DNA of 34,057 nucleotides from Omnitrophica WOR_2 bacterium GWA2_47_8 (GCA_001805375.1 MHFY01000022.1:7240-41296); one strand, 5' to 3'. Shown: positions 271 to 27,257, counted from the stretch's first letter. Numbers and translations are program-made. Notes: generated by a model from the sequence alone, not told the origin.

Positions 271-304
271 ATCTTTATTATTGCTTGAGCAGTGATTTTT
301 GAAG

Positions 305-11166: not shown

Positions 11167-11208
11167 CATGGGGCCGTCCCCCTTTTTAAAAGAGGGGACG
11201 GCCCCATG
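11167..11208 (+). promoter_or_regulatory. 15-bp perfect GC-rich stem-loop in the otsA leader
   Basis: catggggccgtcccc (11167-11181) is the exact reverse complement of ggggacggccccatg (11194-11208). The element lies downstream of the predicted promoter and upstream of the likely otsA start. Confidence 0.6.
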
Positions 11209-11221
11209 TATTTATAAAACT

Positions 11222-12703
11222 ATGTGGACAAAAAAAAACTTACAAGCATTGACCCAGGAAAAAATGGGCGATTACCGTTTTGTCGTTGCCTCTAATCGGC
11301 AGCCCTATGTGCACAGTTTTTCTAGAGGAAAAAAGATTGGATGGCAGCGCGGTGTGGGCGGTGTCATAAGCGCGCTTGACCCGGTGATGCAGGCCTGTCA
11401 GGGCTTATGGGTCGCATATGGTAATGGCGATGCGGATCAAAAGGTCACATCCAAAGATGGAAAAGTGAAAGTTCCTCCGGATAAGCCTTCTTATCTGTTA
11501 AAACGGGTCTGGCTTAACAAAGAGGAGGAAATGGGTTATTATTACGGCTATTCGAATGAGGTCCTGTGGCCGCTGTGTCATATGGCGTTTAAACGCCCGG
11601 TTTTTCGGCAGGAAGACTGGGAGTATTATAAGCGTGTTAATGAAAAATTTGCAAAGGCTATTGTAGAGGAAATCAACGGCAAAAAGGCCTTTGTCTGGAT
11701 CCAGGATTACCATTTATGCCTTTTGGCTAAATATTTAAAGCAGCTGGCTCCGTATCAGATCATCACCGCCCATTTTTGGCATATCCCTTGGCCCAGCTAT
11801 GAAGTCTTTCGTATCTGCCCTCAGAAGAAAGAAATCTTGGAAGGTCTTTTGTGCAATGATCTGCTGGGATTTCATACCCGCTATCACTGCAATAATTTTT
11901 TAGATGTGATCGACCGCGAGTTGGAAAGCAAGATCGACCGCGAAAGGGAGTCTGTTGTTAAGAACGAACACGAAACCTTGATACGCTCATATCCGATCAG
12001 TGTGGATTACCAGGGGATACAGACAATGTCGGAATCATCCGAGGTAAAGGCTTTCCAGGATGCGTTGGTCGAAGAGTTTCAGCTTTCTGGTTTGAGGGTT
12101 TTGGTGGGGTTGGATCGCATTGACTATACCAAAGGGATCCCCGAGAGATTGCTGGCCATCGATCGATTGTTGGAAAAACATCCTGAATTGAGAGAGCAGG
12201 TTGTCTTTTTGCAGATCGGGGTCGTGACCCGGCTGCATTTGACCCCGTATAAAGACCTTAATGACGAGATCAATGCCTTAGTTGAGCAGATCAATTGGAA
12301 ACATTCCACGCCCGGCTGGAAACCGATTATTTTTGTCCGGCGGCATTTTTCGCTCATTGAACTCTTGGCCCTTTATCGGATCAGCGAGGCAGGGATCGTC
12401 AGCTCTCTGCACGATGGGATGAACCTGGTGGCCAAGGAGTACGTCGCCAGCCGCACAGACGGCAAGGGGATGTTGGTCTTGAGCCAATTTACCGGGGCCG
12501 CACGGGAATTGACGGATGCTGTCTTGATCAATCCGTTTGATAAAGAACAGTTCAGCGACGGCCTTTATATGGCCCTTTCCCTTGCGGAAGAAGAACGCAA
12601 TAAACGCATGACGAAGATGCGTGAAATACTTCAAAATAATAATATTTATCGTTGGGCAGGAAAAATTATCTCCGAACTATTAAAATTCGAGTTTGCAGAA
12701 TGA
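11222..12703 (+). CDS. otsA: Alpha,alpha-trehalose-phosphate synthase (GT20)
   Basis: Motifs are 'VVASNRQPY', 'YYYGYSNEVLWPLCH', 'WIQDYHL', 'GLDRIDYTKG' and 'SSLHDGMNLVAKEY'. The start is uncertain. The ATG at 11168 lies inside the hairpin; 11222 is used here; 11264 has the best SD (agga) and gives 'MGDYRFVV'. Confidence 0.85.
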   Translation: MWTKKNLQALTQEKMGDYRFVVASNRQPYVHSFSRGKKIGWQRGVGGVISALDPVMQACQGLWVAYGNGDADQKVTSKDGKVKVPPDKPSYLLKRVWLNKEEEMGYYYGYSNEVLWPLCHMAFKRPVFRQEDWEYYKRVNEKFAKAIVEEINGKKAFVWIQDYHLCLLAKYLKQLAPYQIITAHFWHIPWPSYEVFRICPQKKEILEGLLCNDLLGFHTRYHCNNFLDVIDRELESKIDRERESVVKNEHETLIRSYPISVDYQGIQTMSESSEVKAFQDALVEEFQLSGLRVLVGLDRIDYTKGIPERLLAIDRLLEKHPELREQVVFLQIGVVTRLHLTPYKDLNDEINALVEQINWKHSTPGWKPIIFVRRHFSLIELLALYRISEAGIVSSLHDGMNLVAKEYVASRTDGKGMLVLSQFTGAARELTDAVLINPFDKEQFSDGLYMALSLAEEERNKRMTKMREILQNNNIYRWAGKIISELLKFEFAE

Positions 12704-13515
12704 AACTTTCCTCGGCTACAGTAAAATGGTCTGCGATCGAAAAACGCCTTAAAGAAGCGGAGTATTTTTATCTTTTTCTGGATTATGACGGGACGTTAAC
12801 TCCCATTGCCGCGACCCCGCAAGAGGCCGTGTTATCGCCGGAAGTGAAAGGCCTTTTGCAGAAATTATTAAAATGCCCTCATTGTAAACTTGCTATTATC
12901 ACCGGCCGGAGTTTGGATGACATCAAAACCAGGGTGGCGCTTAAAAATGTCGTTTATGTCGGCAATCATGGGTTTGAGATCGAGGGCGGGGATCTAAAGT
13001 TCAATAGTTTAATAACCCCGAAGCTGCGCAATATTTTTGAAGAGATCAAAAAAGAAGTTAAGGGGTTGTCGGTTGAGATGAAGGAGATATTAATTGAGGA
13101 TAAACGGGCGACGTTAAGCATTCACTATCGTTTGCTCGATGAAAAGCGCTTTCCTTTATTCTTAAAAGCCGTCCGAGAAATTGTTAAGCCATATCTTGAG
13201 CAAAAGGAAATACGCTTGACCGAAGGAAAAAAAGTTATCGAACTGCGCCCGGCCATTGTCTGGGATAAAGGGGAAGCGGTCAAATGGCTTTTAATCAAGG
13301 AGGAATTTAATAAGGGTACAAAAAATATTCTGCCCATTTACATCGGGGATGATGCGACGGACGAAGATGCCTTTGCAACGATCGGCCGCCGGGGCATTAC
13401 CATTATTGTGGGTAAACGCGACAAATCCAAGGCTCAGTATTGCTTGGAAGATACAGAGGATGTCTTCAGGTTCCTGGTCAATATTTTAGAAACGATGAAA
13501 GCAAAGGCCTTATGA
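12700..13515 (+). CDS. otsB: Trehalose-6-phosphate phosphatase (HAD)
   Basis: It forms an ATGA overlap with the otsA stop. HAD motifs are 'LFLDYDGTLTPI', 'IITGRS' and 'IYIGDDATDEDAF'. Confidence 0.85.
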   Translation: MKLSSATVKWSAIEKRLKEAEYFYLFLDYDGTLTPIAATPQEAVLSPEVKGLLQKLLKCPHCKLAIITGRSLDDIKTRVALKNVVYVGNHGFEIEGGDLKFNSLITPKLRNIFEEIKKEVKGLSVEMKEILIEDKRATLSIHYRLLDEKRFPLFLKAVREIVKPYLEQKEIRLTEGKKVIELRPAIVWDKGEAVKWLLIKEEFNKGTKNILPIYIGDDATDEDAFATIGRRGITIIVGKRDKSKAQYCLEDTEDVFRFLVNILETMKAKAL

Positions 13516-14180
13516 CACCAAAGACAGATGAAAAGAAAGGTTTTCGTTTCTATACGCGGTTAAATCTTTCAGGTTTAACGGGGCTTAAGGCCGCCACCCT
13601 GGAAGAATTACTGCAACATATCAAAGAAGTCCCCGGCTCGTGTATCTACCACCATACGCATAGATTTTTGCAACAGCATCAGTATCTGTCTCCTGAACCG
13701 CCCAATGATTTTGCCTATTGGGTCACTCATATCCTAGGTGACGATAGGCTGGGAGAAGATCTGGCCAGTATCGATACGGTCCAATTCACGACGATACGCG
13801 AATTGCGTGAGAAGATCGTGACCGTCATAGAAGAATACCTTAAAAAGTATCCTTCGGCGAAGCGAAGATTTGTTAACGAAGAGCAGGCCTTTTCTTTTAT
13901 TAAATCCATGAGTTTTATCTTGCCGACCCACTATATTGCTTCAAACTTAAGAGAATTTATCGAAATTTTGCGCAAGGTCACCATTGACTCGATTTATTTC
14001 CATATCTTTGAAGCCCGGCTGAGATTAGAGAAAAAGAGTAATGATTTCTCGAATTGGATCGAAAGTTTTCTGGGTGATAAAGAGTTAGCGGAGAAGATCG
14101 CCCAACTCGACCCTTATACGCAGACATTGGAAGATCTGCGCCAAGCGCTTATCCGGATCCTTGAGCGAAAGTTGAAATAA
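13512..14180 (+). CDS. Conserved-looking hypothetical protein embedded in the trehalose operon
   Basis: It forms an ATGA overlap with the otsB stop and ends 1 nt before treT. It encodes a soluble 222-aa protein (FRFYTRLNLSGLTG...HHTHRFLQQHQY...). I recognise no catalytic motif. Confidence 0.55.
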   Translation: MTPKTDEKKGFRFYTRLNLSGLTGLKAATLEELLQHIKEVPGSCIYHHTHRFLQQHQYLSPEPPNDFAYWVTHILGDDRLGEDLASIDTVQFTTIRELREKIVTVIEEYLKKYPSAKRRFVNEEQAFSFIKSMSFILPTHYIASNLREFIEILRKVTIDSIYFHIFEARLRLEKKSNDFSNWIESFLGDKELAEKIAQLDPYTQTLEDLRQALIRILERKLK

Positions 14181-14181
14181 T

Positions 14182-15396
14182 ATGATGCCTAAAATCGATG
14201 ATTATATCCCTATTGTCGGCCAATCGGTGATCGATGACCTTCGTCTTTTGGCCGATCATCTTAAAGGTAAACGCATCCAGCATATTAATTCAACCGCGGT
14301 CGGAGGCGGAGTGGCTGAGATCTTAAACCGCATGGTGCCTCTTTTAAAGGAATTAGGTGTTAATACCCATTGGGATGTGATCAAGGGCGGGGAAAAATTC
14401 TATGATGTGACCAAAAAATTCCATAACGCGCTTCATGGCAAAGAAGGGGATGTCAGCAACGAGGAACTAGCCACATTCTTAGAGAACGGTGAACGTAATT
14501 TAAAGGAAATGGACCTCTCCGCTGATATCGTTTTCGTTCATGACCCGCAGCCCATTACCCTTGTTAAGAAAAAGAAGGAGAATAAATGGATTTGGCGCTG
14601 TCATGTCGATGTCTCCAGACCCAATCCCAAGGTCTGGGAATTCTTAGGCAAATTCATTGCGCAATATGACGCGTCTGTTTTTTCGGCTCCGGGATTTTCG
14701 CCTCAGCTTTCGATCCCGCAATTCCTGATCGCGCCTTCCATTGACCCGTTAAGTGATAAAAATAAGGAGTTGCCGCCGGAAACGATCGAAGCTGTTTTGC
14801 GAAAATATAATATCGTAAAGGATAAGCCGATCGTGACCCAAATTTCCCGTTTTGATTATTTAAAAGACCCGGTGGGCGTCATTGAAGCCTTTAAGCAGGT
14901 CAGAAAATATATCGATTGCCAATTGATCTTAGCCGGGGGAACGGCCAGTGATGATCCGGAAGGGCAGAAGGTGTTGGATGAGGTCATGGAAAAAGCCAAA
15001 GGTGTCCCGGATGTCCATGTGCTCCTTATGCCGCACAATGATATTGAAGTGAACGCCCTGCAGTGCGCCTCAGATGTTATAGTCCAAAAGTCCATCAAAG
15101 AAGGGTTTGGTTTAACGATCTCTGAGGCGTTATGGAAAAGCAAACCGGTCGTTGCCGGCAATGTTGGGGGAATTCCATTGCAGGTGACCCATAAGTATTC
15201 CGGCCTTTTGTGTCATTCCGTGGACGGTTGCGCCTTTGCGATAAAACAGCTTTTAAACAGCCCCGCCTATGCCAAAAAACTCGGCGAAAACGGCCGCGAA
15301 CATGTCCGCAATAATTTCCTTCTCACCCGCCATTTAAAAGAGTATATGCTGCTCTTTCTGTCGTTGTATCATAAGGAAGATGTTGTGTATCTATAG
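14182..15396 (+). CDS. treT: Trehalose glycosyltransferring synthase-like GT4 glycosyltransferase
   Basis: 'HINSTAVGGGVAEIL', 'WIWRCHVD', 'APSIDPLSDKN', 'QISRFDYLKDP', 'DDPEG' and 'KEGFGLTISEALWK' follow the archaeal/bacterial TreT pattern as I recall it. Confidence 0.7.
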   Translation: MMPKIDDYIPIVGQSVIDDLRLLADHLKGKRIQHINSTAVGGGVAEILNRMVPLLKELGVNTHWDVIKGGEKFYDVTKKFHNALHGKEGDVSNEELATFLENGERNLKEMDLSADIVFVHDPQPITLVKKKKENKWIWRCHVDVSRPNPKVWEFLGKFIAQYDASVFSAPGFSPQLSIPQFLIAPSIDPLSDKNKELPPETIEAVLRKYNIVKDKPIVTQISRFDYLKDPVGVIEAFKQVRKYIDCQLILAGGTASDDPEGQKVLDEVMEKAKGVPDVHVLLMPHNDIEVNALQCASDVIVQKSIKEGFGLTISEALWKSKPVVAGNVGGIPLQVTHKYSGLLCHSVDGCAFAIKQLLNSPAYAKKLGENGREHVRNNFLLTRHLKEYMLLFLSLYHKEDVVYL

Positions 15397-15472
15397 TCGG
15401 ATCCTTTAAACCGCCCTCTTTGTTTTTGAGGCTGCCATTGACCGCACATCGATCATTTTAAGCTGATTCTCA

Positions 15473-15501
15473 TTGGTAATCTTCTTTGAGCATTGTATAC
15501 T
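15473..15501 (+). promoter_or_regulatory. Candidate sigma70-type promoter
   Basis: -35 TTGGTA (15473-15478), 17-nt spacer and -10 TATACT (15496-15501). Confidence 0.3.
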
Positions 15502-15543
15502 ATCACTGTTGCGCAATTTATCCCTCACAGGAGATCGATCAAT

Positions 15544-16422
15544 ATGCTTTTAAAGGACATTTTAATAACGATGCGTCCAAATCAATGGACGAAGAATTTT
15601 TTGTTGTTCGCCGGGCTTATTTTTTCCGGAAAAATGACGAACTTGCCCGATGTTCTTGTTTCCGTGCAGGCCTTTATCGTATTTTGCCTGGGCTCATCGA
15701 GCATTTACATCCTCAATGATATTATCGACCGGGAAAATGATAGAGGGCATCCTCAAAAGAGGTTAAGGCCCATTGCTGCAGGCCAGATAACGGTCCCGGT
15801 AGCGTTGAGCCTGGCGGGCAGTTTATTGATCTTTTCGATCGTCCTGTCGATCCGATACCTTAACGTAGCCTTGATCGACACTTTTTTTACGTATCTTCTT
15901 TTAATGGCATGTTACATTTTTGTTTTAAGGCGGGTTGTTATCCTCGATCTTATAGTTGTGGCGGTAGGGTTTGTATTGCGGGCGATCGCGGGTGCGGTCG
16001 TTCTGAAAGTTGCCATCTCTCCATGGCTGATGATCTGTACTTTTTTTCTGGCGTTGTTAGTGTTGATGGGAAAGAGAAGGCATGAGATCCTTCTTTTGGG
16101 CAAAGAAGCCTATGCCCATAGATCCATCCTCAAAGAATATTCCTTGGGTTTCATCGATCAATTGATCGCGGTCGTGACCTCTTCAGCCGTCATCTCCTAT
16201 TCGCTATACACATTTTCCGAAGACACGGTTGCCAGGCTGGGGACCAATTTAATGCCTTTGACCATTCCGTTCGTTCTTTACGGGATCTTTCGATATCTCT
16301 ATCTGACGCATCAACAGAATCAGGGTGGAGCACCGGAAGAATTATTTGTTAATGACAAGGCCCTGTTGGTCAATGGCTTTTTATGGGTTGCCGCCGCTGT
16401 CGCAATATTATATTTTACTTGA
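15544..16422 (+). CDS. UbiA-family polyprenyl-phosphate phosphoribosyltransferase (Rv3806c/DPPR synthase-like)
   Basis: 'RPNQWTKNFLLFAG' and 'NDIIDRENDRGHPQKRLRPIAAG' match the signature I recall for mycobacterial Rv3806c (RPRQWVKN; NDVRDVEADREHPTKRFRPIAAG). It has about 8-9 TM helices. The ATG at 15544 follows 'aggag'. Confidence 0.75.
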   Translation: MLLKDILITMRPNQWTKNFLLFAGLIFSGKMTNLPDVLVSVQAFIVFCLGSSSIYILNDIIDRENDRGHPQKRLRPIAAGQITVPVALSLAGSLLIFSIVLSIRYLNVALIDTFFTYLLLMACYIFVLRRVVILDLIVVAVGFVLRAIAGAVVLKVAISPWLMICTFFLALLVLMGKRRHEILLLGKEAYAHRSILKEYSLGFIDQLIAVVTSSAVISYSLYTFSEDTVARLGTNLMPLTIPFVLYGIFRYLYLTHQQNQGGAPEELFVNDKALLVNGFLWVAAAVAILYFT

Positions 16423-16432
16423 AATTTTGGTT

Positions 16433-17065
16433 ATGAAAATGTGGGATGCCCTGAAGTATTATAAAACCCAGCCTCTCGCCGTCCGTCTATACATCGCTAT
16501 CCGCCCGGTTATCGTTGATTTTAACAGGATATTGGGCTTTTTTCCTGCAGATGCTAACTCCATTATGGAGTTGGCCTGCGGATATGGCATTACATCATTT
16601 GCAATGGCCAACCGATACAAAGGCACACCTATCCGCTCTTATGATATCGATGCGAAACGCATCGCCATTCTGAATTCGATCAATCCGTACCGTCACTTAA
16701 GTTTTCATCATGAGAACATCCTGGATATCCGGGAATTTACGTCCGATGTCATTTTTATGTCAGATCTTTTGCATCATCTGACCTATCCGCAGCAGGAGAA
16801 TTTGCTTAAGAGGATCCATGCCACGGCACCGAGCGGCGTAGTCCTGCTTATTAAAGATATGGATAAGGGGAGGTATTCCTTCAGGCAATTCTTAAATTAC
16901 ATGATCGATATTCTGCATACAGGGGAATTTCGATTTTCTTATCGTGCAAGGGATTCTTTTGTGGGGTTGTTTACATCCTGCGGATTTAAAGTCAAGAGAA
17001 CGGTTTATGTTAACAAATGGTTTATCCCATTAAATCACGTTTTTTTTATTCTGGGAAAAGAGTGA
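16433..17065 (+). CDS. Class I SAM-dependent methyltransferase
   Basis: Motif I is 'IMELACGYGITSF', with an acidic 'YDID' loop and motif 'VIFMSDLLHHL'. The start at 16433 is 10 nt after the UbiA stop; the track's 16325 start overlaps UbiA. Confidence 0.6.
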   Translation: MKMWDALKYYKTQPLAVRLYIAIRPVIVDFNRILGFFPADANSIMELACGYGITSFAMANRYKGTPIRSYDIDAKRIAILNSINPYRHLSFHHENILDIREFTSDVIFMSDLLHHLTYPQQENLLKRIHATAPSGVVLLIKDMDKGRYSFRQFLNYMIDILHTGEFRFSYRARDSFVGLFTSCGFKVKRTVYVNKWFIPLNHVFFILGKE

Positions 17066-18411
17066 GGATGACCATAAAAAGGATTGTTTGTTCCCGTTAG
17101 TTTCCTTGTAAGGGTTTTAATCGGGCTGGTCAATAAGTTGATGATCCCAATTGAAGCGAAGATGGTTAAGGGGGGCAGTAATTCGATCCGCATCCTGGGC
17201 CCGTCATAAAAGTAAATGAAAGAGATGATGAGGGAGTGGTTAAGAATATAAGCGAGGGGAAGAAAGAAAGGTTTGCAATATTTCCAGGAGTAGTACAGCC
17301 CCGGGATAAAGAATATTGAAAGAAGATGAAAGGTTGTTAGGGGGAATGGCAAATAAGAAAGGAAATCATAAAACACATAAGGACTTTCGGGATGAGCCCA
17401 AAGGTGTTTTTGTTTTAGTAAGATCAGATGGAGTTCTCTCGCAGGGTTTTTCCTGATCCAATCCAGCCCATATTGAAAATGTTTTTTTTGGCTGTCGATC
17501 TCATTGAGTCCTTTTAGTTCCTCCTCTTGCTGTGGTGTATAGCGTAAAGGTCCCTCGGGAATAAATCCGCCTTCAGAGTGGGGATGGTGGGCCATAAAAA
17601 AAATAAACCCACCGTTAGAGGAGACAAGTAAGAATTTTTTATGAAGGTTGTGGTTTCTAATGGTCCATGGAAGAACCGTCATGCAAAACGTAAACAGCAC
17701 GATCAGGAATGCTCGCAACACTCGCTTGAGATCCTTCCGGTTCTCAAGAAAAAACCATATGCCTACCCATGCCCAGAATAATATATTCGCAGGCCTTGTG
17801 AGGGTGGCGTGCCAAAGGATCACTGAGGCCAGGAAGAAAAGGATGTTAGTCTTTTGAGGGCTTGCTTGATCGGCCGAATAAAATAGATAAATTGAAAGGA
17901 TGATAAGAAGCGAACTGAATAGCTCTGTATAGAGGGCTTGAATAATTACAATGCTGTAATAATCAACTGCGTACAAAAATGCCGCTAGCAGCGCAATTTT
18001 TTCGCCGTGGGGCATGTCGCGGGTCAATTTTTTGGTCAAAAGAAACAAGATGAGGCAAATAGCTGTCCCAAGTAAACATTGCATGATTCTTGCCACAAAG
18101 ATGCTGTGACCAAAAAGCGCGTAGATGGCATATAGAAAAAAAGGATAACCGGGCGGCCTCCATGAGCTAGGGGTGTTGGGGTAGTATCCGAATCCTTCTT
18201 TGTTCAGAAGATTTGTGGCTATCTGATCATAGCGGACCCCGTCGTACCCGATATCGGCATGCAATGGTTCAATAAATATGACCCAGGAAATCCTAATGGC
18301 GAAGGCGAACCATAAAATAAAAAACAACGCTATTAGGGTCATTCCATTTTTGCTAAACTTAAAATGATCCCTGTCCAAGATGCGGTATTTTTTCAGGTTT
18401 GCAGTCGCCAT
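17035..18411 (-). CDS. GT-C glycosyltransferase, family 39 / ArnT-PMT_2-like
   Basis: This polytopic 458-aa protein has a first-loop 'DGVRYDQIATNLLNKEGFGY...RPPGYPFFLYAIYALFG', typical of the ArnT/PMT_2 family. Confidence 0.75.
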   Translation of the reverse strand: MATANLKKYRILDRDHFKFSKNGMTLIALFFILWFAFAIRISWVIFIEPLHADIGYDGVRYDQIATNLLNKEGFGYYPNTPSSWRPPGYPFFLYAIYALFGHSIFVARIMQCLLGTAICLILFLLTKKLTRDMPHGEKIALLAAFLYAVDYYSIVIIQALYTELFSSLLIILSIYLFYSADQASPQKTNILFFLASVILWHATLTRPANILFWAWVGIWFFLENRKDLKRVLRAFLIVLFTFCMTVLPWTIRNHNLHKKFLLVSSNGGFIFFMAHHPHSEGGFIPEGPLRYTPQQEEELKGLNEIDSQKKHFQYGLDWIRKNPARELHLILLKQKHLWAHPESPYVFYDFLSYLPFPLTTFHLLSIFFIPGLYYSWKYCKPFFLPLAYILNHSLIISFIYFYDGPRMRIELLPPLTIFASIGIINLLTSPIKTLTRKLTGTNNPFYGHPHSFPRIKKT

Positions 18412-18446
18412 ATTTTTTATTTTAACGGGTGGCCCGAATCCTTTTT

Positions 18447-19034
18447 ATGAAATTAGCGATTTTTGATTTTGATGGAACAATCACGGCCAAAGATAGCTTT
18501 ATTGAGTTTATTCTTTATGCGCAAGGCATCGCAAAGACGGCCTTCGGATTTTTTATTTTGTCCCCGGTATTATTGCTATATCATATCAGGCTGATTCCTA
18601 ATTTTAAAGCAAAGCAGATAGTTTTTAATTATTTCTTCGGAGGGTGGGAAGAAAAGAGATTTAAGTCGATATCGGAATCCTTTGCGCAGGATAGATTGCC
18701 GGGATTGATCAGGAAAAGTGCTTTTGAGAAGATCAAATGGCACAAGGAGAATGGCCATGAACTTGTTGTCGTCTCAGCCTCGTTAAACTGCTATCTTGAC
18801 CCCTGGTGTGAGAGTTATCAGCTCGTTCTTATTGCTACGGGAGTTGAATACAAAAACAATAAGGTGACCGGCAGATTTTCAACGAAAAATTGTTATGGCA
18901 AGGAAAAGGTCAGCCGATTATTGGAATTTTACAATTTAGAGAAGTTCGAATATATTTATGCTTACGGGGACAGCGAGGGGGATGAGGAGATCCTCAGGCT
19001 TGCCAACAATGCCAGTAAGGGGGAATTCCGGTAA
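18447..19034 (+). CDS. HAD-IB family hydrolase/phosphatase
   Basis: Motifs are 'LAIFDFDGTIT', 'VVSAS' and 'YGDSEGDEEIL'. A hydrophobic cap insert is present. The first ATG is at 18447; the track's 18429 start is non-ATG. Confidence 0.75.
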   Translation: MKLAIFDFDGTITAKDSFIEFILYAQGIAKTAFGFFILSPVLLLYHIRLIPNFKAKQIVFNYFFGGWEEKRFKSISESFAQDRLPGLIRKSAFEKIKWHKENGHELVVVSASLNCYLDPWCESYQLVLIATGVEYKNNKVTGRFSTKNCYGKEKVSRLLEFYNLEKFEYIYAYGDSEGDEEILRLANNASKGEFR

Positions 19035-19081
19035 CACAAAAATATATCTCCAGGAATGGTCCCGCCGAGAATTACCTCGTT

Positions 19082-20479
19082 TTATTTAAGCAGGGACGGT
19101 TTATAATTCAAAAGACAGATCAGCCAGGTGGCGAGTGGGAAGAAGTGTAAGAATAGTCGAGGCAACACATCAGCAGCAGCCGGTCCCGCCAGCCAAGCAT
19201 ATTCACTCGTTAAAAGCGCCGCCAAGAAGTAGAGCCCAAAGAACATGAAAAGCGATAGGGATAGAAGCCTCGTTTCCGGAGATTTTTCCTTGCCCCATGA
19301 GCTAATATAACTTAATAAAAGTAGAAACCAAATAATATTCCAGTCGGAGTTGGGAAATGTGTAGATCAGAAAAGTTTTGGCGATGATGAGGGGGCGATGA
19401 AAAACATCTATATTGAAGGCGATAAAATGCTTTCCCAATGGGGCCTGAAAGATGGCCTTCACAATATAAAAACCAGCGGTGAGAACGAAGCTTGGGCCGG
19501 AAAATAAAAAAAAGCTTTTTACTTTTTGGTTTAAGGATAAATCCTTTTGATCCATAAGAATTTTTACAAGCAGGGCAATGTGAATGAGCCAGTAGGCTGT
19601 GCCTTCGAATTTTACAAAAGTCGCAAATCCGCTGAATAAGCCAGCTAGGATCAATAATCGATAACCAGGCTCCCTCTGCCATAAAATCAAAAGGATCAGC
19701 GCAGTGCAATTGTAGTAAAGAAGCGGGAAGTCCGCGTAGCAAATGCCGGCCATGTTAAATAAAAATGAAGATGAGATGAGGAGGATAACACCCGTCAATG
19801 ACCAAAGATCATCAGTCAATGTCCGTAAGAAATAGTGCTGTATAACGAGATAAGAAAGAAAAGTGAAGGGCAGAAATGATTGAAGAAGGTGGTCCTGCCA
19901 GGAACCGATATTAAAGGCGAAGTAGGCTAAGGTAAACGGAAGGTGCAGGGGGTAAGAAAAATGAGGCGCATTTATTATATCTTTTAAAGAGGGATGGAAG
20001 AAAAATACTTTAGCTTTTAGAGCGATCCAGGAAAATGTATCGAAGCCGGTAAAGGGGATCGCCCAAACTTTCCAAAAAATAAGCAAGGCGTAGTAGATTA
20101 TTATAATGGTAAGCAGAAACTTAAAAATCGTTAACGCGGGCTTTGACCTACAAAGAGTTTTTAAGGTTTGTTCGTCCATTGGAGCGGTCTTCAGGTTTTG
20201 CGGCTGTGTTCTTCGTGTTTGATATGCATTAAAGAACGAAACACAAATCGTGAGGCCAAGCAGGGGAAGATCGAGGGTTTCTTTGCTGTATGGAATTTTC
20301 AGTATCCCGAGGAGGAGCATATATTGAGTTAGCACGCCGAACCCCAGCCCATAGGATAAGGCGACTTTGGGCCAAAATGGAAAGGTCCTGTCGGGGAACA
20401 AAAGGGACAGGAAGGCGAAACCCATCAGCCAAGGAATGGATAGGCTCAATATAATATTAAGGGCGTTTTCCAGGATCAT
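19082..20479 (-). CDS. Polytopic membrane protein, possible second GT-C-type transferase
   Basis: The 465-aa protein has about 12 hydrophobic segments and an acidic/aromatic first-loop region 'IPFTGFDTFSW'. Its architecture resembles ArnT-like enzymes, but I cannot name a family signature. Confidence 0.45.
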   Translation of the reverse strand: MILENALNIILSLSIPWLMGFAFLSLLFPDRTFPFWPKVALSYGLGFGVLTQYMLLLGILKIPYSKETLDLPLLGLTICVSFFNAYQTRRTQPQNLKTAPMDEQTLKTLCRSKPALTIFKFLLTIIIIYYALLIFWKVWAIPFTGFDTFSWIALKAKVFFFHPSLKDIINAPHFSYPLHLPFTLAYFAFNIGSWQDHLLQSFLPFTFLSYLVIQHYFLRTLTDDLWSLTGVILLISSSFLFNMAGICYADFPLLYYNCTALILLILWQREPGYRLLILAGLFSGFATFVKFEGTAYWLIHIALLVKILMDQKDLSLNQKVKSFFLFSGPSFVLTAGFYIVKAIFQAPLGKHFIAFNIDVFHRPLIIAKTFLIYTFPNSDWNIIWFLLLLSYISSWGKEKSPETRLLSLSLFMFFGLYFLAALLTSEYAWLAGPAAADVLPRLFLHFFPLATWLICLLNYKPSLLK

Positions 20480-21161
20480 TCATGTTCTTTCTTACCGCAA
20501 GGGCGCAGAATTCGTTGAATTGTCCGACAATTCGAAAATCCTCCGGCACGGCCAGCAAGGGGTTTTTCTTGTAAAAAATGACCAGATAATCTATGGGGCT
20601 GGTTTGGTCTATGCGGATATCCAATTCAGGGTATAAGTAATACGCAAGGATGCGATGATGATACATGGGGGAGGATGCCGATATGTCTAAATCTGTCAAG
20701 AAAAGGGCCCTGTGCTCTCCCTGCGTCAATCCTTTGCAAAAGTTTGCGAATAAGAAGGTGTCCTCATAAAGAAAGACCTTTTTCTCGTAAGGGTCCTTAT
20801 GTGCTAAAATTTCGTAAGCTTTTATAAATTTTCGGTTTGAATACATGGCCCGTATCGGCAAGTACATAAAAAATGTAATAAATGCTATCATGAGTATGGC
20901 CCGGTTGAGCGGCATTTTAATTGGTGGGAAATCGCTTTTAATTAGGATGAATTTAAGCACGATAACGCATAGAAGCGAGTTGAGTATACCCTGTCCTAAA
21001 AAGAAATAATCTTGAGCCTTATAATTTGTAAATAAAGTGCGCGGATCAAAGGGCATCATGATGGCAAGAAGACTGAAGCACACCAGGGTGATAGAGGTAA
21101 GAAAAAGGATGTTAGAAATATTGTAGTTTTCGTCTTTCATGGGGGGCGGATGTATGAACAT
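20457..21161 (-). CDS. Membrane protein with C-terminal soluble domain, unknown function
   Basis: The 234-aa protein has three N-terminal hydrophobic helices followed by a ~120-aa hydrophilic domain. Its 3' end overlaps the start of the downstream membrane protein by 23 nt. Confidence 0.4.
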   Translation of the reverse strand: MFIHPPPMKDENYNISNILFLTSITLVCFSLLAIMMPFDPRTLFTNYKAQDYFFLGQGILNSLLCVIVLKFILIKSDFPPIKMPLNRAILMIAFITFFMYLPIRAMYSNRKFIKAYEILAHKDPYEKKVFLYEDTFLFANFCKGLTQGEHRALFLTDLDISASSPMYHHRILAYYLYPELDIRIDQTSPIDYLVIFYKKNPLLAVPEDFRIVGQFNEFCALAVRKNMNDPGKRP

Positions 21162-21219
21162 TTTACCTGAATTTTAGTCAGGGTCAATTGCCCACTTATT
21201 AAATAGAGTTTTAGAAGTA

Positions 21220-24200
21220 TTGACAGATCTTTTGAGGGATCCCGTATTTAAAGAAGGTAATCTTCAGTTTTTTATGCCTAAAGTCATCCAGCAGGCCGAA
21301 AATTTTAAGCCCGTCAACTCCTCCCAGGGGAAATCTTTTGATTTCCCTGAGATCCGCGTTGTTGAAGCCTCCGCCGGAAGCGGGAAGACGTATGCCCTCG
21401 CGAAACGCTATGTTCAGCTTCTCTTGAATTTCTCTTCCGAATCACAAGAAGTCTCCATGAAGGAGATCCTCGCCATTACCTTTACCAACAAGGCCTCTCT
21501 TGAAATGAAGCTCAGAATTTTGGAATTCCTAAAGAAGATCGCCTTGGGGACTTTAAGCGAAACAGAACTGCAGAATATGCTAGGGCCTTTAGGGATGAGC
21601 CGGCAGGCCGCCAGCCAAAAGGCCTTTCGGCTGATGGATTTTCTGATCCAAAACTATAATTTCTTTCAGGTCCAGACGATCGACAAATTTATCAATACCT
21701 TATTGACCGGATGCGCCTTTAAATTAGGCTTCACGGCCAATTTTCAGATCAAGACCAATTCTATCGACTATCTTCAGGAAAGCTTAGACCAGCTGATCGA
21801 TTCCGCCGCCCAAAACATCAAGCTTAAAGATATCTTCGAAGAATTCCTTCACCATTATTTATATCTGGAGAACCGTTCCAACTGGTTTGCCAAGGATGAC
21901 ATGCTGGATATTTTAAAGACGCTTTTCGCGCAATATAACTGCTATGGTTTTTCTTTTAAGGCCAGTGACGTAAAGCCGTCGGATATCATCAAGAGAAAGC
22001 GGCTGATCCTGGACAAGATGAAAAAGTTGCGAGACATATTGCCGGAGACGACAGACAAACGTTTTGTGAAGAGCCTGGAGAAATTTTTAAGTGAGCATAA
22101 GAACAGTTTTGATATCGGGGAAGTTTCAACATACTTTCTGCGGGAAGCCCCGCCGGTCAAAGAAAATGAAAAGGGCTTATCTCACATAGAAAAACTATGG
22201 GAGCAGATCCGGCGGGAATTAAAAGGGGTGTGTGAAGATGAGGCGTTCTCGATGTTTAACCCGTATATTCAGGCGTTCAGAGAAATGCTCATCGTCCTGC
22301 ATGCTCTGGCGGTGAAAGAGGATGTCATTTTTCTGGAAGAGCTCAATAAAAGAGCGCGAAAACTTTTCGAAGGCGGGTTCGTGACGGTCCAGGAGCTTTA
22401 TTACCGCCTCGCGACACGGATACGCCATTACCTGGTGGATGAATTTCAAGACACCAGCCGCCTGCAATGGGAAAATTTAAAAGAATTGGTGGAAGAGGCG
22501 GTCTCTTCCGGCGGATCGTTGTTTTACGTCGGGGACCAGAAGCAGGCGATCTACGGCTTTAGAGGCGGCGAGACCGGGCTTTTTGAGGAGGTCAAAGAAA
22601 AGTTTAAGACCTCTCCCGTAAGGATCGAGAGCCTGGCCAATAATTGGCGCAGTCAAAAAGCCGTTGTCGAGTTTAATAACCGTATTTTTTCTTCCGGGAA
22701 CTTGACGAAATTCCTCATCCAAAAGAGCATTCAGGAAGATGAAGCCAAGAAGAAAGACGCCGTCAGTTTTACGGACGAAGATACCGCGCGATTGGAAAAT
22801 ATCTTTAAGGGCGCGCAGCAAACCTATGAACCCGCCAATGACAAAGGACATGTCCACTTCGAATATGTTGATACGGATAAAAAAGAAGACCGCGATTGTC
22901 TGGTCCGGGAAAAGTTACTGAGCCTACTGAAGAATTTAAAGGAGCGGTTTGATCATGATGATATCGCGATCTTGACGCGGGGCAACCAGGAGATCGAGAC
23001 ATTGACCGGCTGGCTGTTGCAGGAAGGGATCCAGGTCGAATCGGAACGGACGCTTAATATAAAGGCAAACTTGTTGGTCATTGAGGTCATTTCTCTTTTA
23101 AAATTTTTGAACTCACCGATCGATAATGTGAGCTTTGCTTTATTTCTCCTGGGAGACATCTTTCATAAGGCGGTGGGGATCGGCCGGCAGGAATTGCATG
23201 ATTTTATTTTCGGTCTGCGCAGCCGGCTTTTATCGGAGAAGGACGTGTATGTTTACGCGGAATTCCGCCGGCGGTACCCGAAGGTTTGGGAAGGATTTTT
23301 AGAAGGATTTTTTAAGAACGTCGGATTGTATCCTTTGTATGAGCTGGTGGTGAGCATTTACCACCGTTTTCAATGCCTGGATAATTTTCCGGAAAACCAG
23401 GGATTTTTTATGCATTTTCTGGAACTCTTGAAGTCCAAGGAAGAAGAATGCAGCGATCTGGCCGCCTTTCTCGATTATTTTGAGAAAAGGGAAGGTGAAG
23501 AATTTTATGTGCCGGGCGCGGATACCGAAGCGGTGAAGATCTTGACCATCCATAAGGCCAAGGGGCTGGAATTTCCGGTCGTGATCTTGCCGTTCTTGGG
23601 CATGGATGTCCAGCCCGGCAACTCATCGGAGAACAAACAGTCGTATATCTTTGAGCCCGCGAGCGGCCAGGATGTGCATCTGCTGCGGGTCAAAAAAGAA
23701 TATTCGCTCTTTTCGCAGGACCTTTTTCAGATCTATAAGCGGGAATACAAGAAGGCCTTTATCTCGGAATTGAACAATGTTTATGTCGCCCTAACGCGGG
23801 CCAAATTCGAGATGTACGGGTTTATCCCTAAAAAGGTGGGGGGCAGTTTTAATCTGGCGCAGCTTTTGATCCCGCAGGATCTTTGCCGGATAGGGGAGCC
23901 CGCGGTTTACCCAAAGGCGAAAGCAAAACGGCAGGCCTTCCAAAAACTTCCTTTAAGCGATTATCACGATTGGCTCAACTATTTAAAAGAAGAATTTATC
24001 GACCAGGATGAGCTTAAATACGGGAAGGAAAAATTGACCGGAGAGGTCATGCATTACGCGCTGTCTCTTGTGAAAAATCTGGATAAAGACGATAAAAAGA
24101 AGGTCTTTAAGGATATGGAAAAGAATATTACGGCGGAATTCCCGTATCTGGAAGGCCCGGATGAATATGTTCAAAAGGCCAAACAGCTGATCGATGCCAA

Positions 24201-24474: not shown

Positions 24475-27257
24475 GCGGGATCGTTACCTACCCTTTTACC
24501 GAAAGCTTTATCGATAATCTCATCGATCATATCGATGAGCATTATATTAAGGAAGGCAAAGATCTAAGCCGTTTGGCCATTGTCTTCGGCGGGAAAAGGC
24601 CGTCTCTGTTCGTGAAAAGGGAATTGGCCACGCGCCTGAAAAAAGGATATTATTCGCCGCGGTTCTTTACGATCGATGAATTTATCGCCTACACGGCGCG
24701 GAAAGAAGAAAATTTCAATTCCGTTCTGGACCTGGATAACTGTTATCTCTTATATCAGCTGATCAAGAAATACACGCCGCAGATCTTAAAGGGACGGGAG
24801 ACCTTCGCGCAGTTCCTGCCCTGGACGCGGGAGATCCTGCATTTCATCGAACAGCTGGACTTAGAAAGGGTCGAGGACCAGAAATTAAAAGGCATCAAGG
24901 AAAGCGCGCAGATCGGGTTTACCGTGCCCGAGGACATCAACCGCTTGCTGCAGGCGATCATCATCCTGCGCAAAAATTATCACAAAGAATTAACGCAGCA
25001 GAAAATATACACCCGGGGTTTTCAATATTTAAGGGCGTCGGATATCGTCGGCAAGGCTGATTTCGCGGAATTTGACCAGGTTTTATTCTGTAACTTTTTT
25101 TACTTTAACCGCTGTGAGGAGGAGATCATAAAAGATCTGCATAGGCGCGATAAAGCGACGCTTATTTTTCAGGGGGATGAACGCAAATGGCCGGTCTTAA
25201 AACGCATAGCCAAAACTTTGAAAACAGAAATTGTGGAAGGCCCGGCGGTTAAGACGCCTTCTTTTGCTTTGAAACTGTACGCCGGGTTCAACGGCCACGC
25301 GCAAGTCGCCTGGGTGCGGGAGATCTTAAAGAAAATAAAGAATTTGAAGAACACCGTCATTGTCCTTCCGAACCCGGATGCGCTTGTGCCGCTTTTGTCA
25401 GAGATAACCAACCTGGACCAGGATTTTAATATCTCCATGGGCTATCCGCTCAAGCGCAGCAGTTTGTACGCGCTTTTGGAATTTATCTTTAAGGCCCAGG
25501 AATCAAAAAAAGAAAAGCGTTATTACAGCCGGGACTATTTAAAGGTGTTAAGTCACCCCTTTATTAAGAATTTAAAGATCACTGACAACTCCACGGTATC
25601 CCGCATTTTGATCCATAAGATCGAGGAGATCTTAACCGGCAAAGAGGCCACGGACCTTTCCGGAAGTTTATTTTTTAACCTAAAAGATATGGAATCCTTG
25701 GATGATCTATATGTGTTAACGCAGGAGACGCTCAGCCGTCTGGATATTCATATTGACCGTTCCGCGTTGGAAGAGATCTTAAAGACCCTGCATCAGATCT
25801 TATTCTTAAAGTGGGAGAAGGTCGGGAATTTTAAACAGTTCGCCGGCGCGCTGGAAGAATTTTTGAATGTATTGGTTGAAAAAAGTTTCCTGCATCATTA
25901 TCCGCTCAATATCAATATCGCCGCGCGGATCTCCGACATCAAAGAAGAATTCTTAAAGGCGCAATTCAACAAGGAAGAATTCCCACAGGAAGATATCTTC
26001 CGGATCTTTGATAGCAAATTGTCCAGGGAGATGGTGGCCTTTAAAGGTTCGCCTTTAAAGGGCCTGCAGATCTTGGGGCTTTTTGAGACCCGGTCTTTGA
26101 ACTTTGAGGAGGTGATCGTCCTGGATGTCAACGAGGGCGTGCTGCCGTACGTGGTCGTGCACGAACCGCTGATCCCGCGCGAGGTCATGATCAGTTTGGA
26201 TCTTGACCGGTTGGAGTTGGAGGAAGAGATCCAGCGTTATCAATTCATGCGGCTTATCTCATCAGCAAAGAATGTCCATCTCGTTTATCAGGAAAGCAAG
26301 GATAAGGAACGCAGTCGTTTTGTGGAGGAATTGGTTTGGCAGGAGGAAAAACAAAAAAAGGCCGTGGACGCGGTCCCGGTTTCGCGGGCGAGTTTTGAAG
26401 TGAAGGTGAATGCGCAGAGAAAGATCATCCCCAAGACCAAGGAGATGGTCGAAACACTCAAGAAGCACACCTTTTCCGCGTCGAGCATCAACATGTATCT
26501 GCGCAATCCGGTCGAATTTTATTACAATTACGTTTTGGGATTGCGCGAGCAGGAAGATCTGCTGGATGAACCAGAAGCTCGGCACGTGGGGACATTTGTG
26601 CACGAACTTCTGCACGAAAGTTTTAAGCCGTTCATTAATAAGACGCCAAAGATAGACGAGGTTTTCCGCAAGCGGTTCAACGCTGCCTTTGAGAATAAAT
26701 TTGAACAGACCCTGGCCAAACAGATGCATTCGGACAGTTTTCTTCTATATTCGGTCCTGAAAGAACGCCTGGCGCGTTTTTTGAATAACGAACAGTTTGA
26801 GCGGAAGGTGAAGAAGGTCCTCTTCTTGGAGACACGCTTTCAGGATCATTTATCCCTTTCCTGCGGGGACATCAAATTCAGCTACATCATCGACCGGATC
26901 GACCAATTGGAAGACGATACCGTCACGATCATTGACTATAAAACCGGCGGTATCGATCAAATGCCTAAAGCTATCGACCGGATCTCCAATGTAAAGCTTT
27001 CCCGCGAGTCCATCCGGGATACGGTCGTGTCCTTCCAATTGCCGCTGTATTTTCATTACCTGAACCGGGAGTTCAAAGGCCGGCCCGTTGATGCCTGCCT
27101 GTATAATCTGCGCACCATAAAGCTGCATTCTTTTCTGAATAAGAGGGCCAGTTCTTCGAAAGAGGACACAGATCAGGCCTTTTTAAGGGCGTTGGATTTT
27201 GTGGTGGGGGAGATATTGGACCCTGCGATTCCTTTTATCGAAGATGCAGAACTCTAA
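24471..27257 (+). CDS. addB: AddB-like PD-(D/E)XK nuclease subunit
   Basis: It forms an ATGA overlap with the addA stop. The 928-aa protein has C-terminal nuclease motifs 'IIDRIDQL...VTIIDYKTG' and 'QLPLY'. There is no intact N-terminal Walker A ('VFGGKRPS'). Confidence 0.65.
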   Translation: MSGIVTYPFTESFIDNLIDHIDEHYIKEGKDLSRLAIVFGGKRPSLFVKRELATRLKKGYYSPRFFTIDEFIAYTARKEENFNSVLDLDNCYLLYQLIKKYTPQILKGRETFAQFLPWTREILHFIEQLDLERVEDQKLKGIKESAQIGFTVPEDINRLLQAIIILRKNYHKELTQQKIYTRGFQYLRASDIVGKADFAEFDQVLFCNFFYFNRCEEEIIKDLHRRDKATLIFQGDERKWPVLKRIAKTLKTEIVEGPAVKTPSFALKLYAGFNGHAQVAWVREILKKIKNLKNTVIVLPNPDALVPLLSEITNLDQDFNISMGYPLKRSSLYALLEFIFKAQESKKEKRYYSRDYLKVLSHPFIKNLKITDNSTVSRILIHKIEEILTGKEATDLSGSLFFNLKDMESLDDLYVLTQETLSRLDIHIDRSALEEILKTLHQILFLKWEKVGNFKQFAGALEEFLNVLVEKSFLHHYPLNINIAARISDIKEEFLKAQFNKEEFPQEDIFRIFDSKLSREMVAFKGSPLKGLQILGLFETRSLNFEEVIVLDVNEGVLPYVVVHEPLIPREVMISLDLDRLELEEEIQRYQFMRLISSAKNVHLVYQESKDKERSRFVEELVWQEEKQKKAVDAVPVSRASFEVKVNAQRKIIPKTKEMVETLKKHTFSASSINMYLRNPVEFYYNYVLGLREQEDLLDEPEARHVGTFVHELLHESFKPFINKTPKIDEVFRKRFNAAFENKFEQTLAKQMHSDSFLLYSVLKERLARFLNNEQFERKVKKVLFLETRFQDHLSLSCGDIKFSYIIDRIDQLEDDTVTIIDYKTGGIDQMPKAIDRISNVKLSRESIRDTVVSFQLPLYFHYLNREFKGRPVDACLYNLRTIKLHSFLNKRASSSKEDTDQAFLRALDFVVGEILDPAIPFIEDAEL

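Follow-up and report, generated by a model that had tools for sequence, protein, structure and literature searches.

A putative lipid-linked pentofuranose glycosylation cluster in an uncultured Omnitrophota bacterium

The Omnitrophica WOR_2 bacterium GWA2_47_8 carries six neighbouring genes that may encode an extracytoplasmic pentofuranose glycosylation pathway. The stretch of DNA analysed here (the window) comprises 34,057 nucleotides of a 67.9-kb scaffold, of which about 46 kb was inspected. The genes encode a UbiA-superfamily polyprenyl-phosphate 5-phosphoribosyltransferase of the NF008977 subfamily (the window UbiA; 15544-16422, + strand), a soluble class I methyltransferase (MT) dependent on S-adenosylmethionine (SAM; 16433-17065, +), a PMT_2/ArnT-like glycosyltransferase (GT-C #1; 17035-18411, -), a HAD-IB phosphatase (18429-19034, +), a divergent PMT-like glycosyltransferase (GT-C #2; 19082-20479, -) and a small membrane protein (ORF6; 20457-21161, -). 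All six open reading frames (ORFs) were found as an original prediction from the same DNA had described them. We consider it reasonably likely that they form a pathway of the kind reported by Kelly, Duong, Nothof, Lowary and Whitfield (PNAS 2024; PMC11127046), with ribofuranose (Ribf) as the donated sugar. The arrangement is not a product of chance; it recurs in two other related lineages.

The window UbiA is 100% identical to A2Z88_06480 of GWA2_47_8 and has an alternative TTG start at 15493. It scores 258.9 bits on the NCBIfam model for decaprenyl-phosphate phosphoribosyltransferase (NF008977, cut-off 234) and 227.3 bits on NF008978 (cut-off 207), and at most 31 bits on models for CyoE (heme O synthase), UbiA (4-hydroxybenzoate prenyltransferase) and MenA-type enzymes. 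Profile hidden Markov models thus place it in the phosphoribosyltransferase clade rather than in the quinone or heme clades, as had been predicted from two signature loops, both of which are literally present (MRPNQWTKN and NDIIDRENDRGHPQKRLRPIAAG). Its alignment with the cryo-EM structure of Mycobacterium tuberculosis Rv3806c (8J8J; E = 2e-36) spans the whole protein. The residues of Rv3806c that bind Mg2+, pyrophosphate and the 5-phosphate of 5-phosphoribosyl pyrophosphate (PRPP) have been named, and ordinary UbiA prenyltransferases do not conserve the phosphoribose site (PMC10994848). Of the 11 named PRPP contacts, the window UbiA has eight unchanged (R22, K28, Y70, N73, D77, K87, R90 and Y138), two more are conservatively replaced (K143 by Arg, and Y157 by Phe as in some mycobacteria) and one is changed. 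Among the residues described in the structure paper as particular to phosphoribosyltransferases, all those that bind pyrophosphate or the 5-phosphate are kept or conservatively replaced.

These comparisons strongly support the assignment of the window UbiA as a polyprenyl-phosphate phosphoribosyltransferase. It is a homologue rather than an orthologue of Rv3806c, and is assigned to a third phosphoribosyltransferase subfamily. On NF008976, the sub-model of the Rv3806c type, it reaches 160 bits (cut-off 474; Rv3806c itself scores 586 bits), and on NF006088, the model of the Citrobacter-type fusion enzyme, it reaches 163 bits, under the cut-off of 351. We know of no characterised member of the NF008977 subfamily. 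In 4 of 84 sampled loci (L080, L085, L021 and L039), the gene immediately downstream of an NF008977 UbiA encodes a homologue of M. tuberculosis DprE1 (36-39% identity), which implies that the subfamily makes polyprenyl-phosphate-ribose. At 43-51% UbiA identity the subfamily extends over more than 15 phyla, and GT-C genes and genes for small EamA/SMR proteins recur beside it; in Clostridium rectalis, for example, the genes after UbiA encode a PMT_2-like GT-C and a small membrane protein of the EamA/SMR type. The commonest neighbour across these phyla is neither a GT-C nor a phosphatase but a DUF362 protein encoded immediately downstream (29 of the 84 loci).

Two lineages share the cluster with GWA2_47_8. 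In a metagenomic relative with a UbiA 71% identical to that of the window (loci L003/L004), UbiA, MT, GT-C #1 (-) and HAD (+) follow one another in the same order. Omnitrophota OFTM390 (L001/L010/L002; UbiA 61% identical) keeps all six roles with the genes rearranged as ORF6-like, GT-C #2-like, phosphatase, UbiA, MT and GT-C #1. The phosphatase position, 15 nt upstream of UbiA, is occupied by a second PgpA paralogue, and no HAD gene lies within 10 kb of the cluster. Conservation of the neighbourhood, which the original prediction had proposed to examine, thus covers in both lineages the core of UbiA, MT, GT-C and phosphatase, with PgpA replacing HAD in one of them; ORF6 and GT-C #2 are absent from L003/L004. 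Among 80 genome loci with an NF008977 UbiA, single-sequence and iterated searches found no close MT homologue adjoining UbiA (the iterated search gave only weaker class I methyltransferase matches), and a HAD of the same subfamily was found only in Paenibacillus, directly after UbiA. The full cluster is therefore lineage-restricted.

The first of the two glycosyltransferases had been described as a GT39/ArnT-like GT-C enzyme, and its Pfam PMT_2 match (35.1 bits, cut-off 26.1) agrees with this. Directly after its first transmembrane (TM) helix, in the first outward loop, is the conserved acidic motif GYDGVRYDxIA, which includes D-x-x-R-Y and which we take to be ArnT-like; GT-C #1 thus combines two features of the GT-C superfamily. 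A PDB sequence search gave no match, and the protein at the same position in L001 is 46% identical. In all three cluster-bearing lineages GT-C #1 adjoins the UbiA-MT pair, and genes resembling it directly follow an NF008977 UbiA in another Omnitrophota genome and in Clostridium.

GT-C #2 has three extra N-terminal TM helices and does not itself match Pfam. Its family comprises 20 proteins, and PF02366 or PF13231 is present in some of them: PMT or PMT_2 domains occur in two listed members and in a weakly matching outlier, and the L002 orthologue is a PMT_2 protein. The AlphaFold model of GT-C #2 has a mean predicted local distance difference test (pLDDT) of 86.9 and a predicted template modelling (pTM) score of 0.89. 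Its top 13 Foldseek matches in the PDB are all GT-C enzymes (AftA, STT3, ALG9 and Pmt1/2/4, with ALG3 and EmbC lower), the top matches having probabilities of 0.92-1.00 but weak E-values (0.05-0.6) and template modelling (TM) scores of about 0.4. An invariant D147 follows the fourth helix and a positively charged loop, and so fits a GT-C core placed behind the three extra helices. Family membership and modelled fold confirm GT-C #2 as a divergent GT-C enzyme, as the original prediction had supposed.

ORF6, predicted as a protein with three TM helices and found to have roughly that number, overlaps the start of GT-C #2 with its reading frame. It has no Pfam or NCBIfam match, a sequence homologue search returned ORF6 alone, and a single-sequence AlphaFold model (pLDDT 52.7) is unusable for its fold. 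Nevertheless, we regard it as a real gene because a homologue with a conserved C-terminal motif (FITDxD...LAYxLYP...PxD) stands immediately upstream of a GT-C #2 homologue in four independent loci (L099, 7252-9452; L100, 6644-8658; L002, 46-2156; and the window, 19082-21161), where the two genes overlap or abut (overlapping in at least three). ORF6 thus appears to be an obligate upstream partner of GT-C #2. Given that the pair is also found next to GT2 and radical-SAM genes in loci that have no UbiA, and is missing from the UbiA cluster of L003/L004, we treat it as an accessory module with an uncertain donor, and UbiA, MT, GT-C #1 and the phosphatase as the core.

This portability of the module raises the question of whether the glycosyltransferases are served by UbiA at all. 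In one alternative, UbiA, MT and the phosphatase would make lipid-linked ribose, or a methylated derivative of it, as an end product or for some other pathway, and one or both GT-Cs would use another donor, such as a polyprenyl-phosphate-hexose made by a GT2 enzyme encoded elsewhere. Besides the independent occurrence of the ORF6/GT-C #2 pair and its absence from L003/L004, the placement of the cluster genes on alternating strands is consistent with such a partial linkage. So is the result of a search anchored on MT, which found nine metagenome loci (L090-L098) with MT relatives at 26-31% identity; a GT-C #1-like PMT_2 protein is encoded in all nine, UbiA in none, and a GT2 beside the MT relative in the four loci listed in full. 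However, the association of GT-C #1 with UbiA described above argues against this alternative, as does the lack of a GT2 polyprenyl-phosphate-sugar synthase in the window, and we regard it as unlikely. The predicted wiring of the pathway to GT-C enzymes is supported for GT-C #1, which is co-conserved with UbiA, and is weaker than first stated for GT-C #2 and ORF6, which may use a donor other than ribose. As a separate observation, L090-L098 look like a related periplasmic glycosylation cluster based on a GT2 donor synthase, and radical-SAM/SPASM proteins (L090, L097 and L098) and GDSL-type proteins (L090) are encoded near the MT relatives.

The HAD-IB phosphatase is the candidate for removing the 5-phosphate from the polyprenyl-phosphate-ribose-5-phosphate that the window UbiA would make. 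It scores 118.6 bits on TIGR01490 (cut-off 98.3), its catalytic motifs DxDGT, SAS and GDSxGD are intact, as expected of the HAD-IB enzyme predicted here, and an alternative ATG start lies at 18447. A PDB sequence search gave no match. Fusions among its 150 best relatives involve GT2, GT-C, GtrA and ATP-grasp domains, and in P0150, P0206 and P0268 TIGR01490 'hyp1' domains are joined to an ArnC-like GT2, a PMT_2 GT-C and GtrA, which ties the subfamily to lipid-linked glycosylation. These partners are all three components of classical periplasmic glycosylation, and may point to a general, unrecognised phosphatase step in those systems.

The position of the phosphatase in the cluster is also informative, with HAD in the same place in L003/L004 and PgpA in its stead in L001. 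The substrate from which PgpA takes off the terminal phosphate is phosphatidylglycerol phosphate, a lipid-phosphate-polyol-phosphate, and by analogy its chemistry would be formally comparable to the dephosphorylation of polyprenyl-phosphate-ribose-5-phosphate. The non-orthologous exchange of HAD and PgpA is the best contextual argument that this slot belongs to a lipid-linked phosphomonoesterase. It is plausible, as originally suggested, that the role of the mycobacterial phosphatase Rv3807c is filled here by an unrelated HAD enzyme.

The identity of the sugar depends on whether an epimerase acts on the donor. Genes for DprE1, SDR-type DprE2, PAP2, MATE, GtrA or SMR proteins were not found in the window or in the inspected part of the scaffold, and the window and the related cluster loci (flanks up to 10 kb) gave no tblastn match to the PDB-verified M. 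tuberculosis DprE1 sequence, which did match 4 other loci. The predicted lack of DprE1/DprE2 in the window is thus borne out by profile scans and, for DprE1, by tblastn. MATE, GtrA and SMR genes are also missing from L001 and L003. With neither DprE1/DprE2 nor another epimerase beside the cluster, the most likely sugar is ribofuranose rather than arabinofuranose. The donor is probably polyprenyl-phosphate-ribofuranose, as first proposed, because DprE1 is adjacent to NF008977 UbiA where the two are coupled, which is not the case here or in either relative.

The same evidence bears on the possibility that the cluster belongs to the known arabinofuranose route, with the same first two steps, DprE1 and DprE2 encoded elsewhere in the genome, and the GT-Cs acting as arabinofuranosyltransferases. 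In support of this, DprE1 is linked to NF008977 UbiA in the 4 of 84 loci mentioned above, the arabinosyltransferase AftA heads the structural matches to GT-C #2, and inspection of the genome was limited to about 46 kb. However, DprE1 sits immediately downstream where it accompanies this UbiA, and neither the window nor any of the three lineages with the cluster has it within the flanks searched. The AftA match is also weak (E = 0.05, TM score 0.43), with STT3 and Pmt nearly equal to it. We therefore think an arabinofuranose route improbable here, and ribofuranose remains the favoured sugar.

The methyltransferase begins with an ATG at 16433, 10 nt past the UbiA stop, and the gap between the two genes is 8-12 nt in all related loci. 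Pfam Methyltransf_23, Methyltransf_12 and Methyltransf_25 all exceed their cut-offs, so that the SAM methyltransferase predicted at this distance from UbiA is indeed present; a PDB sequence search gave generic weak matches only. That UbiA and MT are instead a quinone-type or other aromatic prenylation-methylation pair with no role in glycosylation, as the JGI name '4-hydroxybenzoate polyprenyltransferase' for many homologues and a weak UbiG/UbiE-like score of MT (21.9 bits, cut-off 103) might suggest, is very improbable and effectively refuted by the model scores of the window UbiA (at most 31 bits for UbiA, CyoE and MenA-type models against 259 for the phosphoribosyltransferase model) and by its PRPP-binding residues, which are not conserved in prenyltransferases.

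Within the glycosylation pathway that we favour, the substrate of MT is a matter of speculation: it could modify the lipid-linked sugar before export, or a later product. To our knowledge, no methylated lipid-linked pentose donor has been described in bacteria. A broader proposal, which we put forward tentatively and consider rather doubtful, is that the lipid-linked sugar is methylated by MT on the cytoplasmic side and that GT-C #1 delivers an O-methylated pentofuranose. MT and GT-C #1 would then be a portable pair served by a PRPP-dependent UbiA here and by a GT2 synthase in L090-L098, with a 5-phosphatase slot filled interchangeably by HAD-IB, PgpA or PAP2.

Taken in order, the pathway would begin at the cytoplasmic face, where the window UbiA, as its sequence strongly supports, would move 5-phosphoribose from PRPP onto a polyprenyl phosphate, probably undecaprenyl phosphate, yielding polyprenyl-phosphate-Ribf-5-phosphate. 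From its context, HAD-IB would take off the 5-phosphate to give polyprenyl-phosphate-ribofuranose, a PgpA-type enzyme doing so in the related lineage. MT, which would be co-transcribed with UbiA, might speculatively methylate the lipid-linked sugar before export or a later product. A flippase not encoded in the cluster would carry the donor across the inner membrane, and GT-C #1, judging from its fold and synteny, would transfer the sugar to a periplasmic acceptor. GT-C #2 with ORF6 may add the sugar to another site or another acceptor; alternatively, its donor may be a different one.

Several observations weigh against this reconstruction. The pathway is reconstructed from gene sequences, and the negative result for DprE1/DprE2 covers about 46 kb of the scaffold. 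In the cluster and that region, genes for a flippase (MATE, GtrA or SMR) are absent. In the window UbiA, Gln135, a ribose O3 contact of Rv3806c, is replaced by Met, which is also the majority consensus of 15 aligned subfamily members. The HAD enzyme differs in subfamily from the domain fused in Citrobacter (its score on the HAD part of NF006088 is 14 bits), and its 150 best relatives include no HAD-UbiA fusion. Where UbiA identity is 43-51%, the neighbours in most genomes are quite different, such as DUF362 and GT4 genes. The six genes also form four alternating transcription units rather than one operon.

The divergent starts of GT-C #1 and HAD are only 17 nt apart (18411-18429), or 35 nt if HAD begins at the ATG at 18447, so that at least one promoter must sit within a neighbouring gene. 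Scans of 15300-21300 showed no excess of promoter-like sites (15, against 12.6 in shuffled sequence) or of terminator-like sites (3, against 6.7).

The original prediction held that the combination was not a described system, which is incorrect given that Kelly et al. showed PRPP-dependent, HAD-assisted and epimerase-free addition of Ribf by a periplasmic GT-C (PMC11127046). In Citrobacter youngae, a UbiA-type synthase that carries a phosphoribose phosphatase (PRP) domain of the HAD family makes polyprenyl-phosphate-Ribf from PRPP, farnesyl phosphate being the in vitro acceptor and undecaprenyl phosphate the inferred natural carrier. A MATE protein is the predicted flippase, and Ribf is added in the periplasm by a GT-C whose lack of similarity to existing families led to the founding of family GT136. 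Conversion of the donor to xylofuranose or arabinofuranose is an option that takes an epimerase (ORF13 or DprE1/E2), Ribf needing none. Such three-component pentofuranose systems (ORF15-ORF14-ORF12 in C. youngae O1/O2) are called widespread in Gram-negatives (PMC11127046). Pilin arabinosylation in Pseudomonas aeruginosa, so far as it is cited there, is an earlier case outside the Corynebacteriales.

The window cluster would share with this system a PRPP-dependent UbiA-superfamily polyprenyl-phosphate-phosphoribose synthase, a candidate HAD-superfamily phosphatase for the 5-phosphate, Ribf without an epimerase, and a final transfer by a GT-C at the periplasmic face of a diderm. It is thus a variant of a system already known since 2024 and not a new kind of biology. 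However, its HAD is a separate gene of subfamily TIGR01490 (with PgpA in a relative) rather than a fused PRP domain, its UbiA is of the NF008977 rather than the fused NF006088 type, and the cluster has no MATE flippase gene. The window GT-Cs match PMT_2 (GT39/GT83-like), which suggests a CAZy family other than GT136. The window cluster also adds a conserved MT and a second GT-C with a small partner, and its host is an uncultured Omnitrophota bacterium. A literature search found no paper mentioning such a cluster in Omnitrophota.

Two older systems offer further comparisons. Like the mycobacterial decaprenyl-phosphate-arabinose pathway, the cluster has a homologous first enzyme with its PRPP-site residues kept, and a lipid-linked pentofuranose donor would be used by GT-Cs (Emb/Aft in mycobacteria) outside the membrane. 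In contrast to that pathway, the window lacks the PAP2 phosphatase Rv3807c, DprE1/E2 and the GtrA-like Rv3789, and its GT-Cs are small (about 460 amino acids) and ArnT/PMT-like, without carbohydrate-binding domains of the Emb type. With the ArnT/Gtr systems of periplasmic modification (ArnC/GtrB as GT2 synthase, ArnEF/GtrA as flippase and ArnT/GtrC as GT-C) it shares the ArnT/PMT_2 signature of GT-C #1, the fusion of HAD relatives to ArnC-like GT2, GtrA and PMT_2, and the location of MT and GT-C #1 relatives next to GT2 genes. However, the donor synthase of the window is a PRPP-using UbiA rather than a nucleotide-sugar GT2, and so, unlike in the ArnT/Gtr systems, a dephosphorylation step is needed.

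If the reconstruction is correct, the PRPP-based extracellular pentofuranose route extends to the Omnitrophota, an uncultured phylum of nanobacteria with uncharted surface chemistry. The pathway also appears to be modular, with enzymes that are not related to one another in the phosphatase step (here HAD-IB, in a relative PgpA, in mycobacteria PAP2 and in Citrobacter the fused HAD-PRP domain), the transfer by a PMT_2-type GT-C probably outside GT136, and an MT tightly coupled to the donor synthase. These features provide concrete markers for spotting such systems in metagenomes. The coupling of MT suggests a testable additional step, methylation of the lipid-linked sugar.

Directly upstream of the cluster (11168-15396, + strand) is a run of trehalose genes encoding OtsA (GT20), the trehalose phosphatase OtsB, a DUF5752 protein and a TreT-type trehalose synthase. 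We rejected a functional link of the cluster to these genes, as the upstream genes differ in related clusters. The DUF5752 gene (13440-14180) lies between two trehalose routes, which hints at a trehalose-related role for this family. Apart from a gap of Ns at 24783-24917, the scaffold as deposited in ENA is 100% identical to the window. The gap splits an AddB-like nuclease gene into two called ORFs; in the window copy the gap is closed and the gene encodes a single protein of 928 amino acids. Elsewhere in the window (299-2527), an MFS-like membrane domain is fused to spermidine synthase (NF037959, 742 amino acids). On the scaffold upstream of the window (L009, 1-3028) is a large RHS/YD-repeat toxin gene with a Tox-MPTase3 domain, and the small uncharacterised ORFs that follow it may be immunity genes.

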